Shown one piece after another: positions 256 through 9,060 of a DNA stretch of 9,417 bases. Under the pieces are notes generated by a model. The model was given only the letters and a program-made list of their open reading frames with translations. It searched no databases and was not told where the DNA came from. Numbering within the stretch: the stretch's first letter is position 1; every line of letters begins with the position of its first letter. This stretch comes from a virus (lineage: Duplodnaviria; Heunggongvirae; Uroviricota; Caudoviricetes). The stretch lies in the IMG/VR virus record IMGVR_UViG_2700989509_000013; one strand, 5' to 3'. Position numbers and translations under genes: made by a program.

Positions 256-456
256 GAAAATAAAGGGATAACGATGATAGTTTGAGAAAAACAGAAATAA
301 CACTTTTGTGGCAAAGCATGGTGCCGGGTGCCTCCCGGTGAATTCAGTATCAGCACCTGAATCCGCGATTACCCCATATTCCTTCTTGCTGATTGCCCCA
401 CCGCACAGGGGGATTCACCATGCAGAAGTGTTTTTAATAAACAGCAAACAAAAAAA

Positions 457-4316: not shown

Positions 4317-4400
4317 TCCATCCCTCTTCTCCCTGCGCGCTACTTAAGTATTTTTGATTCTATTCCGGCACCTTCAAAAAGCTCAAACGTCTTGAAAATA

Positions 4401-4428
4401 AACAACAAAAAACCCGCCGAAGCGGGTT
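4401..4428 (-). terminator. Rho-independent terminator at the 3' end of the hok transcript
   Basis: Minus-strand hairpin AACCCGC-TTCG-GCGGGTT (4411-4428) followed by UUUUGUUGUU; about 70 nt past the hok stop. Confidence 0.5.
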
Positions 4429-4496
4429 AAGTGCGGGTGCGTTGAGGATGCCTGACACATCAGAGGTGGCGAGGGATTTCTCCCCCGCCGGGTCTC

Positions 4497-4652
4497 TTAC
4501 TCCTCAGGTTCGTAAACTGTGAAGACAGCGACCTCCGTCTGGCCGGTTCGGATTCGTACCTCGCAGAGGTCTTTCCTCGTTACCAGTGCCGTCACTATGA
4601 CGGTTAAACAGATGACGATCAGGGCGATTAACATCGCCTTTTGCTGCTTCAT
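4497..4652 (-). CDS. hok: Hok-family type I toxin (HokD/RelF-like), 51 aa
   Basis: MKQQKAMLIALIVICLTVIVTALVTRKDLCEVRIRTGQTEVAVFTVYEPEE is a near-exact match to remembered HokD. ATG at 4650-4652 with AAGGAG 9 nt upstream; an in-frame upstream ATG at 4709 gives the 70-aa track ORF. Confidence 0.9.
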   Translation of the reverse strand: MKQQKAMLIALIVICLTVIVTALVTRKDLCEVRIRTGQTEVAVFTVYEPEE

Positions 4653-4830
4653 AGCCTGCTTCTCCTTGCCTTTCGGCACGTAAGAGGCTAACCTACATTT
4701 GTGAGACATAGATTGGGCCTCAGATTAATGTTAAGCGTCTTGCAGGACGCCGAATGTTAACTGGGGCTTTTCTCTATCTGCCTTTGGTGTTCATGCCTGA
4801 GACAGATAGCCTCAAGCACCCGCAGCCATT
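4653..4830 (-). promoter_or_regulatory. hok mRNA leader region (expected site of mok-like overlap, fold-back elements and antisense Sok-like RNA; not resolved)
   Basis: Position relative to hok plus inverted repeat CTATCTG/CAGATAG at about 4769-4808. Sok promoter could not be pinned down by eye. Confidence 0.3.
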
Positions 4831-5114
4831 CTACTTAACTCCCGTTACCTCGCCAATATGAAATCAATCAGAAAGGTGCTCCATAAGAACAATAACAAGA
4901 CAATAAATTGCCATTACAGCCGCAATAGCCAGCGCACATTTCAGAACCAGCACGATGACCTCCCATATTTGACGTACACGCGCATGATTCAATATGTAGC
5001 AACCTATTTCTTGCTTCAATATAAAATCAGGTATTGTTGCATAACTATTTAACTGACTCCCTATCCCCACATCTCAGGCGCTCAACTTCTGTGTGCGGGG
5101 CGTTTTTTAATACC

Positions 5115-5198
5115 TTACCCCCAGCGGCAAATCGAATACACCACCAGCGCCACCGCTATCGCAATTCCTACCGTTGTAAATGCTTCAGGCCAGGTCAT
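5115..5198 (-). CDS. 27-aa hydrophobic peptide (single predicted TM helix), translationally coupled to upstream gene
   Basis: ATG 5196-5198 overlaps the TGA of the 187-aa gene (ATGA); GAGGA lies 9 nt upstream. Translation MTWPEAFTTVGIAIAVALVVYSICRWG, stop TAA at 5115-5117. Not in ORF track. Confidence 0.4.
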   Translation of the reverse strand: MTWPEAFTTVGIAIAVALVVYSICRWG

Positions 5199-5758
5199 CG
5201 CAAAATATCCTCCGCGCTTATCAGTCCGTTTCGCTTCAGGTAGTCCATCGCCTTCTCCGGTAATTTGCAGTCCGGCTTAGCTTTTTTCAGTTGGCTGACC
5301 AGTCGCTTAACCCACATTGTTAATTCGCTAACCTGATTGCCGGATGCTGGGGGATTGTCGGCTTTACCCAGAATGGCAGCACAGCAGGCCTCTTTGAGTA
5401 CCCAATCAACAGCGTCTTTCCATGCTCCTGTTTCGACTGGAGGATTCTCACGCCGTACCTGTTCATAAAAGCGCACAGCTTTAACCAGTCCTTCAGGCAC
5501 TACCGGCACAGGTGGAGCGACGAATAGTGGTTTAGGTGATATCTCCGCACGTTTTGCGTATGCTTCAACTATATCAGGATTAAACAGGATTATGTTTTCG
5601 CCGCATTCCCACGCTATCGGTTCTGCTTCCAGCGATGCCAATGCAATTTTGAATAACTCACCCTCTACTCGTGCCATCCCTGAATTGGGATGGCATTTCG
5701 CAATCGCTATTTTTAATTTAGCTTCTTCGATTAATTGCTCTTTGGTTAATTCAGTCAT
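5195..5758 (-). CDS. Hypothetical protein, 187 aa, no recognised domain
   Basis: Intact ORF MTELTKEQLIEEAKLKIAIAKCHPNSG…AEDILR. Start ATG at 5756-5758 lies inside a 4-codon uORF (ATG 5763-5765, MKND*) and downstream of a hairpin; coding-like composition. Confidence 0.6.
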   Translation of the reverse strand: MTELTKEQLIEEAKLKIAIAKCHPNSGMARVEGELFKIALASLEAEPIAWECGENIILFNPDIVEAYAKRAEISPKPLFVAPPVPVVPEGLVKAVRFYEQVRRENPPVETGAWKDAVDWVLKEACCAAILGKADNPPASGNQVSELTMWVKRLVSQLKKAKPDCKLPEKAMDYLKRNGLISAEDILR

Positions 5759-5767
5759 TTTTCATTA

Positions 5768-5789
5768 CCGCCCTTTCAGGCGGTCTCCT
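5768..5789 (-). promoter_or_regulatory. Hairpin between Shine-Dalgarno and start codon of the 187-aa gene
   Basis: Minus strand reads AGGAGA (plus 5784-5789), then stem CCGCC/GGCGG (5768-5772 with 5779-5783) with 6-nt loop, then UA-AUG. Folded, the SD-to-AUG spacing drops from about 19 nt to about 3. Confidence 0.3.
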
Positions 5790-5853
5790 GATGTTCTGAG
5801 GGTGCAGAAATCCCTCCGGTTAAGGATTAAATTTTTAACAGTGCTAAATTTAA

Positions 5854-6210
5854 TTATTCAGTTCTTGATTTTGCCGCCCTGCGTATACGTGCTTTCGCGT
5901 TACGCTCAATCTGAATTAGCTTTTCTATATTTCTCCGCCTTTCCCGTTCCTCCTGGCGCAAGAGCCTTACATCATCTGCCAGTCTGGTTTCTCTTTTCGC
6001 CATAGAGAGCATCCAGTCAAATGGCTCCACAACTGCACCGCAGATTTTACAGCGGACCTGACGCACTTTTTCGTCAACCCGGACAGAAGCGTGATGGCAA
6101 TATGGTCTTTCCGATGGCTCATAAAGAAAATTAACCTGATTACGTGGGTCATCCTCTTTTACCGGAAATAAAACAATATTACTTAACTCATCTTCTGGTT
6201 TTATTTCCAT
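5854..6210 (-). CDS. Hypothetical protein, 118 aa, possible zinc-ribbon (C-HH…C-x2-C) with basic C-terminal tail
   Basis: ATG 6208-6210 with AGGAGAGG 6 nt upstream. Contains YCHHASVRVDEKVRQVRCKICG and an Arg/Lys/Glu-rich C-terminal third. Overlaps the upstream gene by 23 nt. Confidence 0.6.
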   Translation of the reverse strand: MEIKPEDELSNIVLFPVKEDDPRNQVNFLYEPSERPYCHHASVRVDEKVRQVRCKICGAVVEPFDWMLSMAKRETRLADDVRLLRQEERERRRNIEKLIQIERNAKARIRRAAKSRTE

Positions 6211-6688
6211 GGTCCTCTCCTTTGATGCGAATGCCAGCGATAATTGAAGCCTGATAGCTAATTTTACTCACAGCCCCCCCCTGATAATTTCCCTGATAAA
6301 ACGCCAGCACTCGCTGCATAACTTCGCTCTTCCGGCACTCGCGACAGATTATATTCAGGCGCCTGTCGTAGCGACGTATTTCTCCGTCTGGTAATGACCA
6401 TATAAGGTCAGGATCAACCACAACCGGTTTCTTCAGCTTTGCCCTCGATAATTTTTTGCGGGCGTTTTGCCAGTCCTTACGCGCCTGTTCAGACGGGAAT
6501 AATCCGTAGCCTGAATTGTAAACATCACCACTGGCGACCAGTTCTCTGGCGAGAGTGCTTATGTAATACCTTGATGCACCGGTTTTAGCCTCCAGAGCCC
6601 GTAACGTCTCGCGACCGCTCAGACGTACAAGTTCAATAACCTGCCCTTTAATTTTTTCTCGCTCTTCTTGTGTAAAAACTTTTGCCAC
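6188..6688 (-). CDS. Hypothetical protein, 166 aa, GTG start, possible N-terminal HTH; occupies the position of a helicase loader but has no Walker motif
   Basis: GTG 6686-6688 preceded by AGGAGG with 4-nt spacer. N-terminal RETLRALEAKTGASRYYISTLAREL is HTH-like. No GxxGxGK[ST]. Confidence 0.6.
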   Translation of the reverse strand: MAKVFTQEEREKIKGQVIELVRLSGRETLRALEAKTGASRYYISTLARELVASGDVYNSGYGLFPSEQARKDWQNARKKLSRAKLKKPVVVDPDLIWSLPDGEIRRYDRRLNIICRECRKSEVMQRVLAFYQGNYQGGAVSKISYQASIIAGIRIKGEDHGNKTRR

Positions 6689-6728
6689 AAGTCCTCCTGA
6701 AAATTACCTCGTGACCTGAAATAAACAC

Positions 6729-7811
6729 TTACCCCCTGAAGCCCGGTGGAATTTCGGTATCCGGTTCAGAAATATGATTCACACAACGCTGGTTGTTCGT
6801 GCCGCTTACCGGGAGCAACCAGGGGTTTTCAAAATTTCGGTCCGGTCCAAAAAACGTCGTCGCTCGCTGAACAAATTCCGTTCCAGTTTTCCCGGTAACC
6901 GCCAGATATCTTGCGTAACGCCTCACGCCATCCAGCATGGCCTCTGGTGGCACCCCCTCGCGTAATCTGGCCTTCCAGGCACTGAAAGCGGATTTCTTCG
7001 GGTTTGCCCCGGCACGCAACGGGTACTCCCGCCAGACCTGTTCGAACACATCCGGATAATCCACTCGTCCCACAGACTGCCCGGTGTTTTCCGGGACTAC
7101 CCGATCGGCTTCCCACTGAATGGCGGAATCGGCTTCAGGCTGCTGCAGTTGGAGTGATTGCTCCGGCCTTGCGGTCATCACCTGCTGCACAGCGCCCGAA
7201 TCGGCTTTCAGCGCATACGCTGAATCGGCTTCCGGTGTCGTGCCTGCTGGCTGACCAGGATTGACGGTCTGAACATCCCCTGCCTGGTTCGTGGCGTTTT
7301 TTACGCCATGGACCATAGTGTTTTGATCTTCTTTATCTGTATCTTTATCTGTATCTTTATCTGTATCTTTATCTGTCGTGACTTGCCGTGACATGTGCGT
7401 GACATTTCGTGACGCGCCGTGACAATCGCCATTTTGTTCCCGCTTTCTTTCCCTCTCTCGCTGCGCCCTCTTGCGCTCTGCAGGAGATTTTGCGGTTTGC
7501 GAAATATTGCCGTTGTCCTCTTTCAGCACCTGGCGTTTTTCCCATCCAGTGATTAAATCACCATCAAGTACCCGCCCCTGCATCGTCTGCAAAATTGAAT
7601 CAATTACCTCTTCTGTCACGTCGAGCGCACTTGCCAAATCTTCTGTCGTGACATCAATGTGACCTCGCGTGACATTTCGTGACGCGCTCACCAGGAGGTG
7701 GATATACACTGCCATCACTGTTGCAATTGGCTGCCCTGACACCCTGGCAATTGTTCGCCACTTAGGGTCATTTGGCATGTCATGCCATAATCTGAGCCAG
7801 GCGTTGGCCAT
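6729..7811 (-). CDS. Phage replication initiator (lambda O-like replisome organiser) with iterons inside the coding sequence
   Basis: 360-aa ORF from ATG 7809-7811 (GAGGTGA just upstream; track start at 7817 is GTG). N-terminal MANAWLRLWHDMPNDPKWRTIA…, central DKDT x4 linker, C-terminal …FEQVWREYPLRAGANPKKSAFSAWKARL… resembling remembered phage replication-protein C-terminal domains. Sits directly downstream of the cro-like/YdaT-like genes. Confidence 0.7.
   Translation of the reverse strand: MANAWLRLWHDMPNDPKWRTIARVSGQPIATVMAVYIHLLVSASRNVTRGHIDVTTEDLASALDVTEEVIDSILQTMQGRVLDGDLITGWEKRQVLKEDNGNISQTAKSPAERKRAQRERERKREQNGDCHGASRNVTHMSRQVTTDKDTDKDTDKDTDKEDQNTMVHGVKNATNQAGDVQTVNPGQPAGTTPEADSAYALKADSGAVQQVMTARPEQSLQLQQPEADSAIQWEADRVVPENTGQSVGRVDYPDVFEQVWREYPLRAGANPKKSAFSAWKARLREGVPPEAMLDGVRRYARYLAVTGKTGTEFVQRATTFFGPDRNFENPWLLPVSGTNNQRCVNHISEPDTEIPPGFRG
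7329..7376. repeat. Tandem 12-bp repeat, about 4 copies (CTTTATCTGTAT; 6-bp periodicity TATCTK), AT-rich
   Basis: Read directly at 7331-7376; encodes the DKDTDKDTDKDTDK linker on the minus strand. Immediately adjacent to iteron array A. Confidence 0.9.
7375..7425. repeat. Iteron array A: five direct CGTGAC repeats at about 10.5-bp spacing (probable origin of replication)
   Basis: CGTGAC begins at 7377, 7387, 7398, 7408 and 7418 (spacings 10, 11, 10, 10), in phase with the DNA helix and flanked by the AT-rich tandem repeat. Confidence 0.7.
7645..7687. repeat. Iteron array B: four GTGAC repeats at about 10-bp spacing
   Basis: GTGAC begins at 7648, 7659, 7668 and 7678. A 21-bp stretch GCGTGACATTTCGTGACGCGC (7667-7687) is repeated exactly at 7397-7417 in array A. 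Confidence 0.6.
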
Positions 7812-7882
7812 ACTCACCTCTTTTGATACCGAATCTTTTTACTCACAAATTGCCGGAAGTGATCCGGTATGAATATTGCGAG

Positions 7883-8308
7883 TCAATGCACAGCCACAAT
7901 ATTTCCTGCAGGGCCACCTCGATTTATCTGGTTGAAACCAGCGATCGCCACTGCGACAAAATCATCAGCGTCTCTCACCAGTCGCTCCCGCGTCTCCACC
8001 AGCTCCCGAAAATAAGCTGAACTGTGGCTGCGCATTCTGGCCACCAGCAAAGGTGGCATTGCCTTTTCGATCGCTGGTAACAGCGCCTGAATTTTTTTAA
8101 CCGCATCAGGAGTATCTTTCTCCACCCAGCGGAAAATTTTCTGAGTATTGCGAGCCAGGGCTTCCGGATGGCTGTCGTCATACAGTTCAGGAAACGTCAT
8201 ACCCAACTCAAAATAAGCCTGGGTTATTCCAGCTGCTGGAACTTTTTCGCCATCAGGACGCGCCCAGGCATTCATCGCCATGCGGATGTGTTCATGCTTG
8301 ATTTTCAT
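7883..8308 (-). CDS. YdaT-like prophage regulatory protein
   Basis: 141-aa product begins MKIKHEHI…, matching the remembered N-terminus of Rac prophage YdaT. ATG at 8306-8308, GGAG 8 nt upstream; overlaps the cro-like gene end by 17 nt. Confidence 0.7.
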   Translation of the reverse strand: MKIKHEHIRMAMNAWARPDGEKVPAAGITQAYFELGMTFPELYDDSHPEALARNTQKIFRWVEKDTPDAVKKIQALLPAIEKAMPPLLVARMRSHSSAYFRELVETRERLVRDADDFVAVAIAGFNQINRGGPAGNIVAVH

Positions 8309-8567
8309 GAATCAACTCCGGTGTATTTGGTGTGTTAGCCTTATCTCCAGCAGGCAACCCGTCAGTTGGATTCGGGTATAAATCTGGTCGCAATTCATGA
8401 GGAGTAACCCCAGTTGCAATATAAATTTGACGAACCCGTTCTCCCGTCGGCACTCGACCATTGTATTCATTTGCCCATTTGTGTATTTGAGATGGCCAAG
8501 CCCCTATTGCACGCCCTAGCGGACGAATACCACCAGCAATCTTTATTGCTTTGTCCAATGCTGTCAT
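8292..8567 (-). CDS. Cro-like HTH regulator of the YdaS/DicC family
   Basis: 91-aa product with …LGRAIGAWPSQIHKWANEYNGRVPTGERVRQIYIATGVTPHELRPDLY…, the YdaS/DicC-type pattern (…HELRPD). ATG 8565-8567 with GGAGG 4-5 nt upstream; divergent from the repressor gene. Confidence 0.75.
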   Translation of the reverse strand: MTALDKAIKIAGGIRPLGRAIGAWPSQIHKWANEYNGRVPTGERVRQIYIATGVTPHELRPDLYPNPTDGLPAGDKANTPNTPELIHENQA

Positions 8568-8595: not shown

Positions 8596-8624
8596 ATTGT
8601 TCACTTAAAACGAACATAAGTCAA
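8596..8624 (-). promoter_or_regulatory. PR-like promoter with overlapping operator (drives cro-like operon)
   Basis: Minus strand: -35 TTGACT (plus 8619-8624), 17-bp spacer, -10 AACAAT (plus 8596-8601). Spacer and -10 contain the inverted repeat TTGTTC-N9-GAACA (plus 8597-8617). Confidence 0.5.
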
Positions 8625-8670: not shown

Positions 8671-9060
8671 ATGGACATGAGAAAAAAGCAATACGACACC
8701 CCGCTAGCAGAAAGGTTAGATACGATCTCTCAACAGCATCATTTAAGTGGTTCAGATTTAGCGCGTATCGCTGGTGTAGGTCGTTCATCAGTCAACGCAT
8801 GGAAAAAAAGAGGAACAATCAGTAAAGATTCCGCAGCCAAAATTGCAGAAGCCACAAACGTTTCCCTTTCTTGGCTACTGACAGGGAAAGAAGAGACAAA
8901 TAGAGAGGCGCTTGATGATGACGAGAAGGCCCTGCTTGATGTTTACAGAAACCTGCCACCTGTAGAACGTAGAAATATGCTGGCAGCTTTTCAAATGCGA
9001 CTCCAAAAACTGACCGAATTTTACTCAGAATACGTCGACCCAATAACACGACAAAAATAA
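8671..9060 (+). CDS. DicA/CI-like phage repressor (XRE-family HTH, no peptidase domain)
   Basis: 129-aa product with N-terminal HTH (…LSGSDLARIAGVGRSSVNAWKKRGTIS…) and C-terminal helical region …LLDVYRNLPPVERRNMLAAFQMRL… resembling remembered DicA. Divergent from the cro-like gene. Confidence 0.8.
   Translation: MDMRKKQYDTPLAERLDTISQQHHLSGSDLARIAGVGRSSVNAWKKRGTISKDSAAKIAEATNVSLSWLLTGKEETNREALDDDEKALLDVYRNLPPVERRNMLAAFQMRLQKLTEFYSEYVDPITRQK

Follow-up and report, generated by a model that had tools for sequence, protein, structure and literature searches.

The replication initiator gene of a lambdoid Escherichia coli prophage probably contains the vegetative origin of this prophage, made up of helically phased iterons and an adjoining AT-rich unwinding element, which would place the origin within the very gene that encodes its initiator. 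The window analyzed here, a 9.4-kb stretch of viral DNA (9,417 nucleotides), carries two arrays of a hexameric core within this gene, together with a single inverted copy of the core and a perfect AT-rich tandem repeat (Table 1). An origin at this site had been proposed in an earlier, sequence-only reading of the same DNA; this proposal stands as the supported interpretation, and we infer origin activity from the phasing of the repeats, the purifying selection that acts on them at the DNA level, the co-variation of the two arrays, and the conservation of the AT-rich repeat and of its position relative to the last iteron.

Table 1. Coordinates of the features of the putative origin, the initiator gene and its upstream neighbors (positions are those of the window; the gene strand is the minus strand)
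Feature	Coordinates	Strand	Details
CI-type repressor gene	8671-9060	+	
pR-like promoter candidate	8596-8624	-	TTGACT-17-AACAAT, 9/12; candidate by consensus match alone
YdaS-type gene	8292-8567	-	
Replication initiator gene	6729-7811	-	360 aa; ATG at 7811, stop codon 6729-6731
N-terminal winged-helix domain, coding sequence	7482-7811	-	residues 1-110; presumed iteron-binding domain
N-terminal iteron array	7647-7683	-	GTCACG at 7647-7652, 7668-7673 and 7678-7683, GTCACA at 7658-7663; encodes ASRNVTRGHIDVT, residues 43-55 of the initiator
Single inverted iteron	7615-7620	+	between the arrays; gene nucleotides 192-197, codons D64-V65-T66
Linker iteron array	7377-7423	-	five GTCACG cores on the gene strand (7377-7382, 7387-7392, 7398-7403, 7408-7413, 7418-7423); encodes CHGASRNVTHMSRQVT
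AT-rich 12-bp tandem repeat	7330-7376	-	GATACAGATAAA on the gene strand; DKDT x 3.5; proposed DNA unwinding element
Palindrome, 13-bp arms	7285-7315	.	just beyond the AT-rich repeat; terminator-like hairpin on the + strand
C-terminal tail of the initiator	6732-6803	-	residues 337-360; resembles the end of E. coli DnaT (SEPDxxIPPGFRG); last 13 residues SEPDTEIPPGFRG

The identity of the gene that carries the repeats, which the sequence-only reading had taken to be that of an initiator, is supported by an end-to-end match to PHROG 3729, 'replication initiation protein' (E 7e-252), and by a 98% identical gene that is named 'phage replisome organizer' in RefSeq; weak matches to PHROG 'replisome organizer' profiles are detectable as well (phrog_4880, E 7.6e-8). 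A Pfam scan of the protein yields no family above threshold, with only a weak hit to HTH_Crp_2 (E 0.074). In the AlphaFold2 model of residues 1-110 (pLDDT 80.9), three helices are followed by a loop (residues 46-55), a further pair of helices and a beta wing, a predicted winged-helix fold that may resemble the N-terminal domain of DnaD, and the model is disordered from about residue 95 on. Given this layout, the N-terminal array specifies the last part of helix 3 along with a length-variable loop, whereas the linker array and the AT-rich repeat encode the disordered linker that follows the folded domain, where the earlier reading had placed them. At the opposite end of the protein, the C-terminal tail aligns with positions 156-179 of the 179 positions of the NCBIfam DnaT model and, in a phmmer search against PDB, with residues 73-96 of 6aep_A (E 0.021) and residues 159-179 of 9zbt_D.

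The linker array had been described as five CGTGAC repeats spaced by 10-11 bp, and both its coordinates and its spacing hold: on the plus strand, the hexamers start at 7377, 7387, 7398, 7408 and 7418, that is, at intervals of 10, 11, 10 and 10 bp. The hexamer occurs 13 times in the window compared to 3.7 +/- 1.9 in shuffled sequences (200 shuffles, maximum of 9), and nine of these 13 copies, along with a TGTGAC variant, fall within 310 bp. A phased chain of five identical hexamers did not appear in any of 1000 windows simulated under a Markov-1 model, the longest chain being three, in 3 of the 1000. Both the array and the AT-rich repeat are translated, as previously stated, the minus-strand open reading frame (6729-7817) reading ...CHGASRNVTHMSRQVTTDKDTDKDTDKDTDKED... 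in this region. Among E. coli variants with 83-87% identity, all five linker cores are invariant and the spacers differ; single-nucleotide indels relocate the 11-bp step within the array, and the linker peptide changes from CHGASRNVTHMSRQ to CHDESRICHDMSRR or CHDESRRVTHLSRQ over identical DNA cores. Five exact linker cores are present in 71 of the 75 E. coli-type loci from IMG/VR.

The five-copy description holds for the linker array and falls short for the locus as a whole: with a second array and an inverted copy in the same gene, located 220-260 bp from the linker array and overlooked by the earlier note, the total comes to nine direct copies and one inverted copy. The second array, situated in the part of the gene that codes for the N-terminal winged-helix domain, reads, on the plus strand, CGTGAC at 7647, TGTGAC at 7658, and CGTGAC at 7668 and 7678 (spacing of 11, 10 and 10 bp). 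Its three exact cores are found in all 75 E. coli-type IMG/VR loci. Of the 22 other loci with the GTCACG hexamer, 12 have the inverted copy at an identical place in the gene, and the third position of codon V65, which lies within this copy, is G in 15 of 15. Across homologous loci, the size of the array varies by steps that preserve the reading frame; thus, in L005-L007 and L009, a 21-bp insertion into the N-terminal array amounts to two additional cores and seven additional residues.

As for the AT-rich element, described earlier as about four copies of a 12-bp repeat at 7331-7376, Tandem Repeats Finder corroborates it as 3.9 copies of the unit TCTTTATCTGTA with 100% matches (period 12, 7330-7376). 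Its GC content is 0.26, within a gene of 0.46-0.66, and its duplex has the lowest stability of any 46-bp stretch in the entire window (dG of -48.5 versus a mean of -63.4, z 3.4). The repeat is also strand-asymmetric, with 77% pyrimidines on the plus strand. In nearly all homologues, GATAAA/GATACA repeats start at most three bases past the last linker iteron, and they are kept regardless of the iteron class, including in GC-rich hosts. A D-K repeat could be encoded by GAC-AAG in such hosts; GAT-AAA is retained instead. The comparison of repeat copy number among relatives, suggested in the sequence-only reading, shows that the 75 E. coli-type viral contigs (61 distinct genes) carry between about 1.5 and 6 units of the AT-rich repeat, with protein lengths of 352-368 aa as a result, and that within E. 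coli it is this copy number that varies, the number of iterons being fixed. Ori-lambda has a palindrome placed beside its AT-rich region much like the one that follows the repeat here.

To what extent the hexamers are constrained as DNA can be judged from homologous loci taken from 40 species-level genomes; the full-length diversity was drawn from genome contigs, the listed homologous proteins being shorter than 200 aa and mostly fragments. In these loci, the step from one hexamer to the next is 10 bp in 78 cases and 11 bp in 23, and the hexamers start at codon positions 1, 2 and 3 in 69, 46 and 45 copies, respectively, so that GTCACG is translated as V-T, x-S-R or (C/G)-H-x depending on the frame. 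For the analysis of synonymous sites, 18 loci from different genera were chosen solely by the presence of at least two GTCACG in the linker, and the N-terminal domain was then examined. Fourfold-degenerate third positions of conserved codons in this domain are saturated (1.4-2.0 bits), whereas codons 43, 44, 47, 48, 50, 51, 54 and 55, in which the third base lies inside a hexamer, show 0-0.31 bit; the third base of R49, located between two hexamers, is free (1.77 bit). The contention that constraints on DNA sites shape the protein sequence is thus vindicated: as judged from these patterns, the hexamers are DNA sites under purifying selection that the protein sequence follows.

The two arrays co-vary. 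When the best phased hexamer of each locus is picked from gene nucleotides 100-250 only, the same hexamer also forms a phased array between nucleotides 350 and 500 in about 30 loci and is rare across the other ~4.7 kb of each locus. Three iteron classes emerge, namely GTCACG (23 loci; hosts include E. coli, Serratia, Bordetella, Chromobacterium and Pseudomonas), GTAACG/TAACGC (5 loci) and CGAACG (4-5 loci), and within each arrayed locus both arrays are filled by one class. The absence or loss of phase of the repeats in conserved homologues had been named as an argument against an origin; on this count, 32 of the 38 homologous loci have the repeats in phase, and no phased arrays are recognizable in five or six (L032, L035, L041, L042, L046 and, weakly, L044), most of which retain the GATAAA repeats. 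All the copies retrieved by the IMG/VR scan were from E. coli and identical in the N-terminal domain; they contribute population data and no further iteron classes.

Could the repeats be explained without any DNA function? A slippage-prone DKDT linker combined with a duplicated peptide might seem sufficient given that ASRNVT-x-VTT occurs twice in the protein and that the copy number of the 12-bp repeat varies as in a simple slippage tract. However, the hexamers are read in three frames and recur every 10 or 11 bp, a step not divisible by 3, which implies that they are not peptide repeats; the synonymous sites within them are frozen next to saturated neighbors, the linker peptides differ over identical DNA cores, and the GAT-AAA codons persist in GC-rich hosts. 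We reject the peptide-repeat explanation primarily on account of the use of three frames and the synonymous freeze, and the probability that we are left to assign to a protein-level or neutral origin of the repeats is almost negligible. It is also very improbable, if slightly less so, that, instead of the phage initiator, a host factor such as an OmpR/PhoB-type response regulator binds the hexamers. Regulators of this type recognize direct repeats spaced by 10-11 bp, TGTCAC looks like a Pho-box half site, and the spacing and direct orientation of the hexamers suit tandem winged-helix binders. Furthermore, the helix-turn-helix and the wing of the initiator are almost identical across iteron classes, with no residue signature of the class visible in the recognition helix or the wing, which is why the binder could be another factor. 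Against a host protein speak the switches of the hexamer among GTCACG, GTAACG and CGAACG in relatives, which occur in step in both arrays; the conservation of GTCACG alone, without the preceding T; the spacers, which are GC-rich rather than AT-rich; and the constant association of the arrays with the N-terminal domain across gamma- and beta-proteobacteria. The differences between classes fall in the loop encoded by the N-terminal array and in the basic segment that follows the wing, and one might speculate that residues 43-55, comprising the end of helix 3 and the loop that precedes the helix-turn-helix, themselves set the hexamer that is recognized, so that the site and its reader reside in the same nucleotides. 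We consider this quite unlikely; should it be true, gene conversion between the arrays could switch the origin specificity among GTCACG, GTAACG and CGAACG in a single step while leaving the remainder of the winged-helix domain constant.

A different kind of objection accepts the initiator as the binder and relocates the start of replication. The arrays could be control sites, involved in autoregulation, roadblock or 'handcuffing' as in incA of P1, with initiation occurring elsewhere, or else the N-terminal array could be purely regulatory, the origin consisting of the linker array and the AT-rich repeat. Such a division of labor is suggested by the presence of two arrays separated by about 230 bp, between which an inverted copy lies, and by the distance between the arrays, which is not in helical phase across loci (219, 227, 229, 231, 238 and 247 bp); in SPP1, moreover, the second gp38-binding site is not mainly a start site (PMC6316719). 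Yet the conserved AT-rich repeat, the least stable duplex, is invariably joined to the linker array, which is the hallmark of a firing origin, and the complete genome of phage Tritos contains no further hexamer cluster. The firing and control roles are, in any case, mutually compatible. Altogether, we find it unlikely that the locus serves for control in place of initiation, even as the N-terminal array could be a control element rather than a part of the origin.

The scenario that we favor, with the origin inside the initiator gene, can be spelled out as follows. Derepression of the pR-like promoter would allow transcription through the YdaS-type and YdaT-type genes to produce the initiator, and the N-terminal winged-helix domain of the latter would bind the GTCACG cores as tandem, head-to-tail units; with one core per helical turn, all the bound units would line up on one face of the DNA. 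The five-copy linker array would be occupied in this manner and probably also the four-copy array located 230 bp upstream, along with the inverted copy. The resulting nucleoprotein complex would strain the adjoining (GATACAGATAAA)n tract and cause it to melt, after which the C-terminal half of the initiator would bring in the host helicase machinery, and theta replication would begin. Given that no phage helicase or loader is encoded in the module present in the window, the initiator may act through its DnaT-like tail, which, judging by its similarity to the DnaT terminus, might recruit host factors. We infer the binding by the initiator, the melting of the AT-rich tract, the firing of the origin and the route of helicase recruitment from this arrangement.

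The window corresponds, by its genomic context, to the early-right operon of a lambdoid prophage, read from the minus strand, with the gene order CI-type repressor, YdaS-type, YdaT-type, initiator, DUF977, Hok, DUF968, RusA and Q. The pR-like candidate lies between the CI-type repressor and the YdaS-type gene, a position from which it would drive YdaS, YdaT and the initiator, with transcription passing through the origin. A candidate antisense promoter formed by the iterons themselves (GTGACA-16-GACAAT, 7399-7426) was rejected, with a score of just 9/12 and a regional promoter count not above that in shuffled sequences. DnaA boxes are not enriched near the site (26 loose matches versus 19 expected, with none in 7285-7430), a result that speaks neither for nor against the proposed origin. 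In E. coli chromosomes, copies with 98% identity neighbor dicB, an exonuclease gene, xis and int.

The initiator gene is present in 2530 of the 5426 complete E. coli genomes (about 47%) and also in phages that have been isolated, Tritos and Evi among them. In the complete, 46-kb lambdoid genome of Tritos, the initiator gene is the sole replication gene, and the two arrays within it are the only hexamer clusters. The family defined by the N-terminal domain comprises more than 3000 clusters at 50% identity, in proteobacterial prophages. The N-terminal domain, both arrays and the AT-rich repeat travel as one module that is combined with three downstream arrangements: DUF977, as in the window; an ATP-binding protein (L002); or a different C-terminal domain (Pfam DnaT, PF17948) followed by a lambda-type P gene (L005-L007). 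The nucleotide homology between the module types stops inside the AT-rich repeat. The putative origin combines with the N-terminal half of the initiator into the specificity unit, in the manner of lambda.

That an origin can reside inside an initiator gene has been known in principle since lambda; what makes the present case of interest is the frequency of the element and the clear manner in which the iteron classes co-vary. Despite the abundance of this initiator in E. coli and the size of its family, we found no description of this origin in the part of the literature that could be searched, a query with the hexamer sequence included. The Eru papers on the replication regions of Stx phages make no mention of origins or iterons. 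A defined origin would make it possible to predict the replication compatibility of co-resident lambdoid and Stx-type prophages, to devise origin-decoy defenses or conditional vectors, and to read prophage activity from sequencing coverage. A natural series of iteron classes on a near-constant winged-helix scaffold, with frozen synonymous sites, also presents a clean case in which to study the mutual constraint between a DNA site and the protein that it encodes.

How does this locus compare with the known replication systems? The iterons of plasmids P1, F, R6K, pSC101 and RK2 are direct, helically phased repeats to which the initiator binds in tandem, and in the plasmid origins, the sequence of the adjoining AT-rich region matters, not just its composition (PMC5043065). 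The arrays described here are direct and helically phased as well and, in this respect, are closer to the plasmid iterons than to the 19-bp inverted-repeat iterons of lambda; the P1 plasmid also has two arrays, like the initiator gene. Plasmid iteron units span about 17-22 bp, whereas here the core is 6 bp, the period is a single helical turn, and the arrays lie inside a coding sequence. Unlike the plasmid iteron origins, the locus shows no enrichment of DnaA boxes nearby, and the initiator is not of the RepE type by any of the searches that we ran. The resemblance to E. coli DnaT is close in the last 21-24 residues of the initiator and, for the protein encoded in the window, is limited to this tail, the relatives that are partnered with lambda P carrying the Pfam DnaT DNA-binding domain, PF17948, instead; the host contact of this tail is not established in PMC13377028.

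Among phages, SPP1 provides one apparent parallel: in oriL, direct repeats for the origin-binding protein are located inside gene 38 and adjoin an AT-rich unwinding element (PMC6316719), so that in both cases repeats in direct orientation, along with an AT-rich element, reside within the gene of the organizer itself, and the RefSeq product name 'replisome organizer' is shared with gp38. The domains themselves are not detectably related, the hhalign comparison of the N-domain alignment (A1) with SPP1 gp38 yielding no similarity (probability 0.2%, E 0.34). Unlike SPP1, with its distant second site, oriR, the 46-kb genome of Tritos contains no hexamer cluster beyond the two in-gene arrays and, in contrast to the loader and helicase that SPP1 has of its own, the module in the window encodes neither.

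The other parallel, with lambda, had been drawn in the sequence-only reading in terms of the layout of ori-lambda, where iterons are followed by an AT-rich tract in the middle of gene O (PMC7466680; PMC5043065). The order of the elements indeed corresponds; the iterons themselves do not, given that those of lambda have internal inverted symmetry, measure about 19 bp and are bound by O dimers (PMC5043065) and those in the window are 6-bp asymmetric cores in direct orientation within each array, with a 10-11 bp period. Further differences are that the initiator matches neither Phage_rep_O nor any other Pfam family, that a second array is present inside the coding sequence of the DNA-binding domain, and that the P gene, which is present in relatives L005-L007, is absent from the window, where DUF977 comes next. 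The similarities go beyond the order of the elements: as in ori-lambda and the Stx phages, the origin would lie in the middle of the initiator gene, with the iterons preceding a strand-asymmetric AT tract when read the way pR transcription runs; the N-terminal half together with the origin would make up a specificity module, and the C-terminal half would pair with a helicase-loading partner; and additional iterons translate into additional residues, 13 in Stx phages and seven per 21 bp here (PMC7466680; PMC5043065). Thus, the initiator belongs to neither the lambda O nor the SPP1 gp38 family, and yet, as far as its sequence layout indicates, the locus appears to work like both of these origins.

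At 4400-7811 of the window, there is no helicase or helicase-loader gene downstream of the initiator, which is followed by DUF977, two unknown ORFs and hok, the order also found in the lambdoid phage Tritos (31285-36167 of that genome). Given this absence, and given that Tritos possesses no replication gene besides the initiator, the initiator module seems to depend wholly on host DnaB/DnaC.

In E. coli chromosomes (loci L002, L003-4 and L005-7), one and the same N-terminal domain, together with the proposed origin, precedes three downstream arrangements: DUF977 comes next in one, a gene for an ATP-binding protein in another (L002), and in the third the C-terminus carries a DnaT domain and a lambda-type P follows (L005-7); the recombination joint between these arrangements is contained in the AT repeat. 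Among the matches listed for the N-terminal domain, several proteins of approximately 180-190 aa (P0034, P0049, P0091 and others) have this domain fused straight to an HNH nuclease domain (PF01844/PF14279) that stands in place of the replication C-domain. Another match, the fragment P0022, agrees with the N-domain of E. coli at 100% identity and comes from a 404-bp contig labelled Staphylococcus saprophyticus at NCBI, a label that is probably due to contamination.

The palindrome directly past the AT repeat (see the table) might act as a terminator of antisense transcription, or else belong to the structure of the proposed origin. A GATC site adjoins the same repeat, and two such sites lie by it in the common E. 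coli variants (GATCAAGAAGATC), a sequence feature that makes involvement of Dam or SeqA possible. Both arrays of the Erwinia phyllosphaerae locus (L033) consist of overlapping hexamers (CGTCACGTCACGTCACG) and are a compressed form of the iteron array. In the Serratia MAG (L041) and Pantoea (L046) homologues, an inserted segment (…YVYYVATTDGDVVRVGISRNPWARCKDLK…) replaces the linker region after the wing, and no iteron arrays were seen in either.

Features of the initiator gene, the adjoining DNA and the Erwinia homologue
Feature	Position	Strand	Remarks
Initiator C-terminal tail	6732-6803 (residues 337-360)	-	DnaT-like end
Palindrome	7285-7315		13-bp arms; T-rich tail on +, antisense to initiator gene
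GATC site	7325-7328		adjoins AT repeat
L033 hexamer arrays	gene nt 159-175 and 411-427		overlapping hexamers at 5-bp spacing

The initiator ends in NHISEPDTEIPPGFRG, a close likeness of the sequence with which E. coli DnaT itself ends, NSVSEPDNHIPPGFRG (PDB 6aep, 9zbt_D); the tail may mimic a replication-restart contact of the host.
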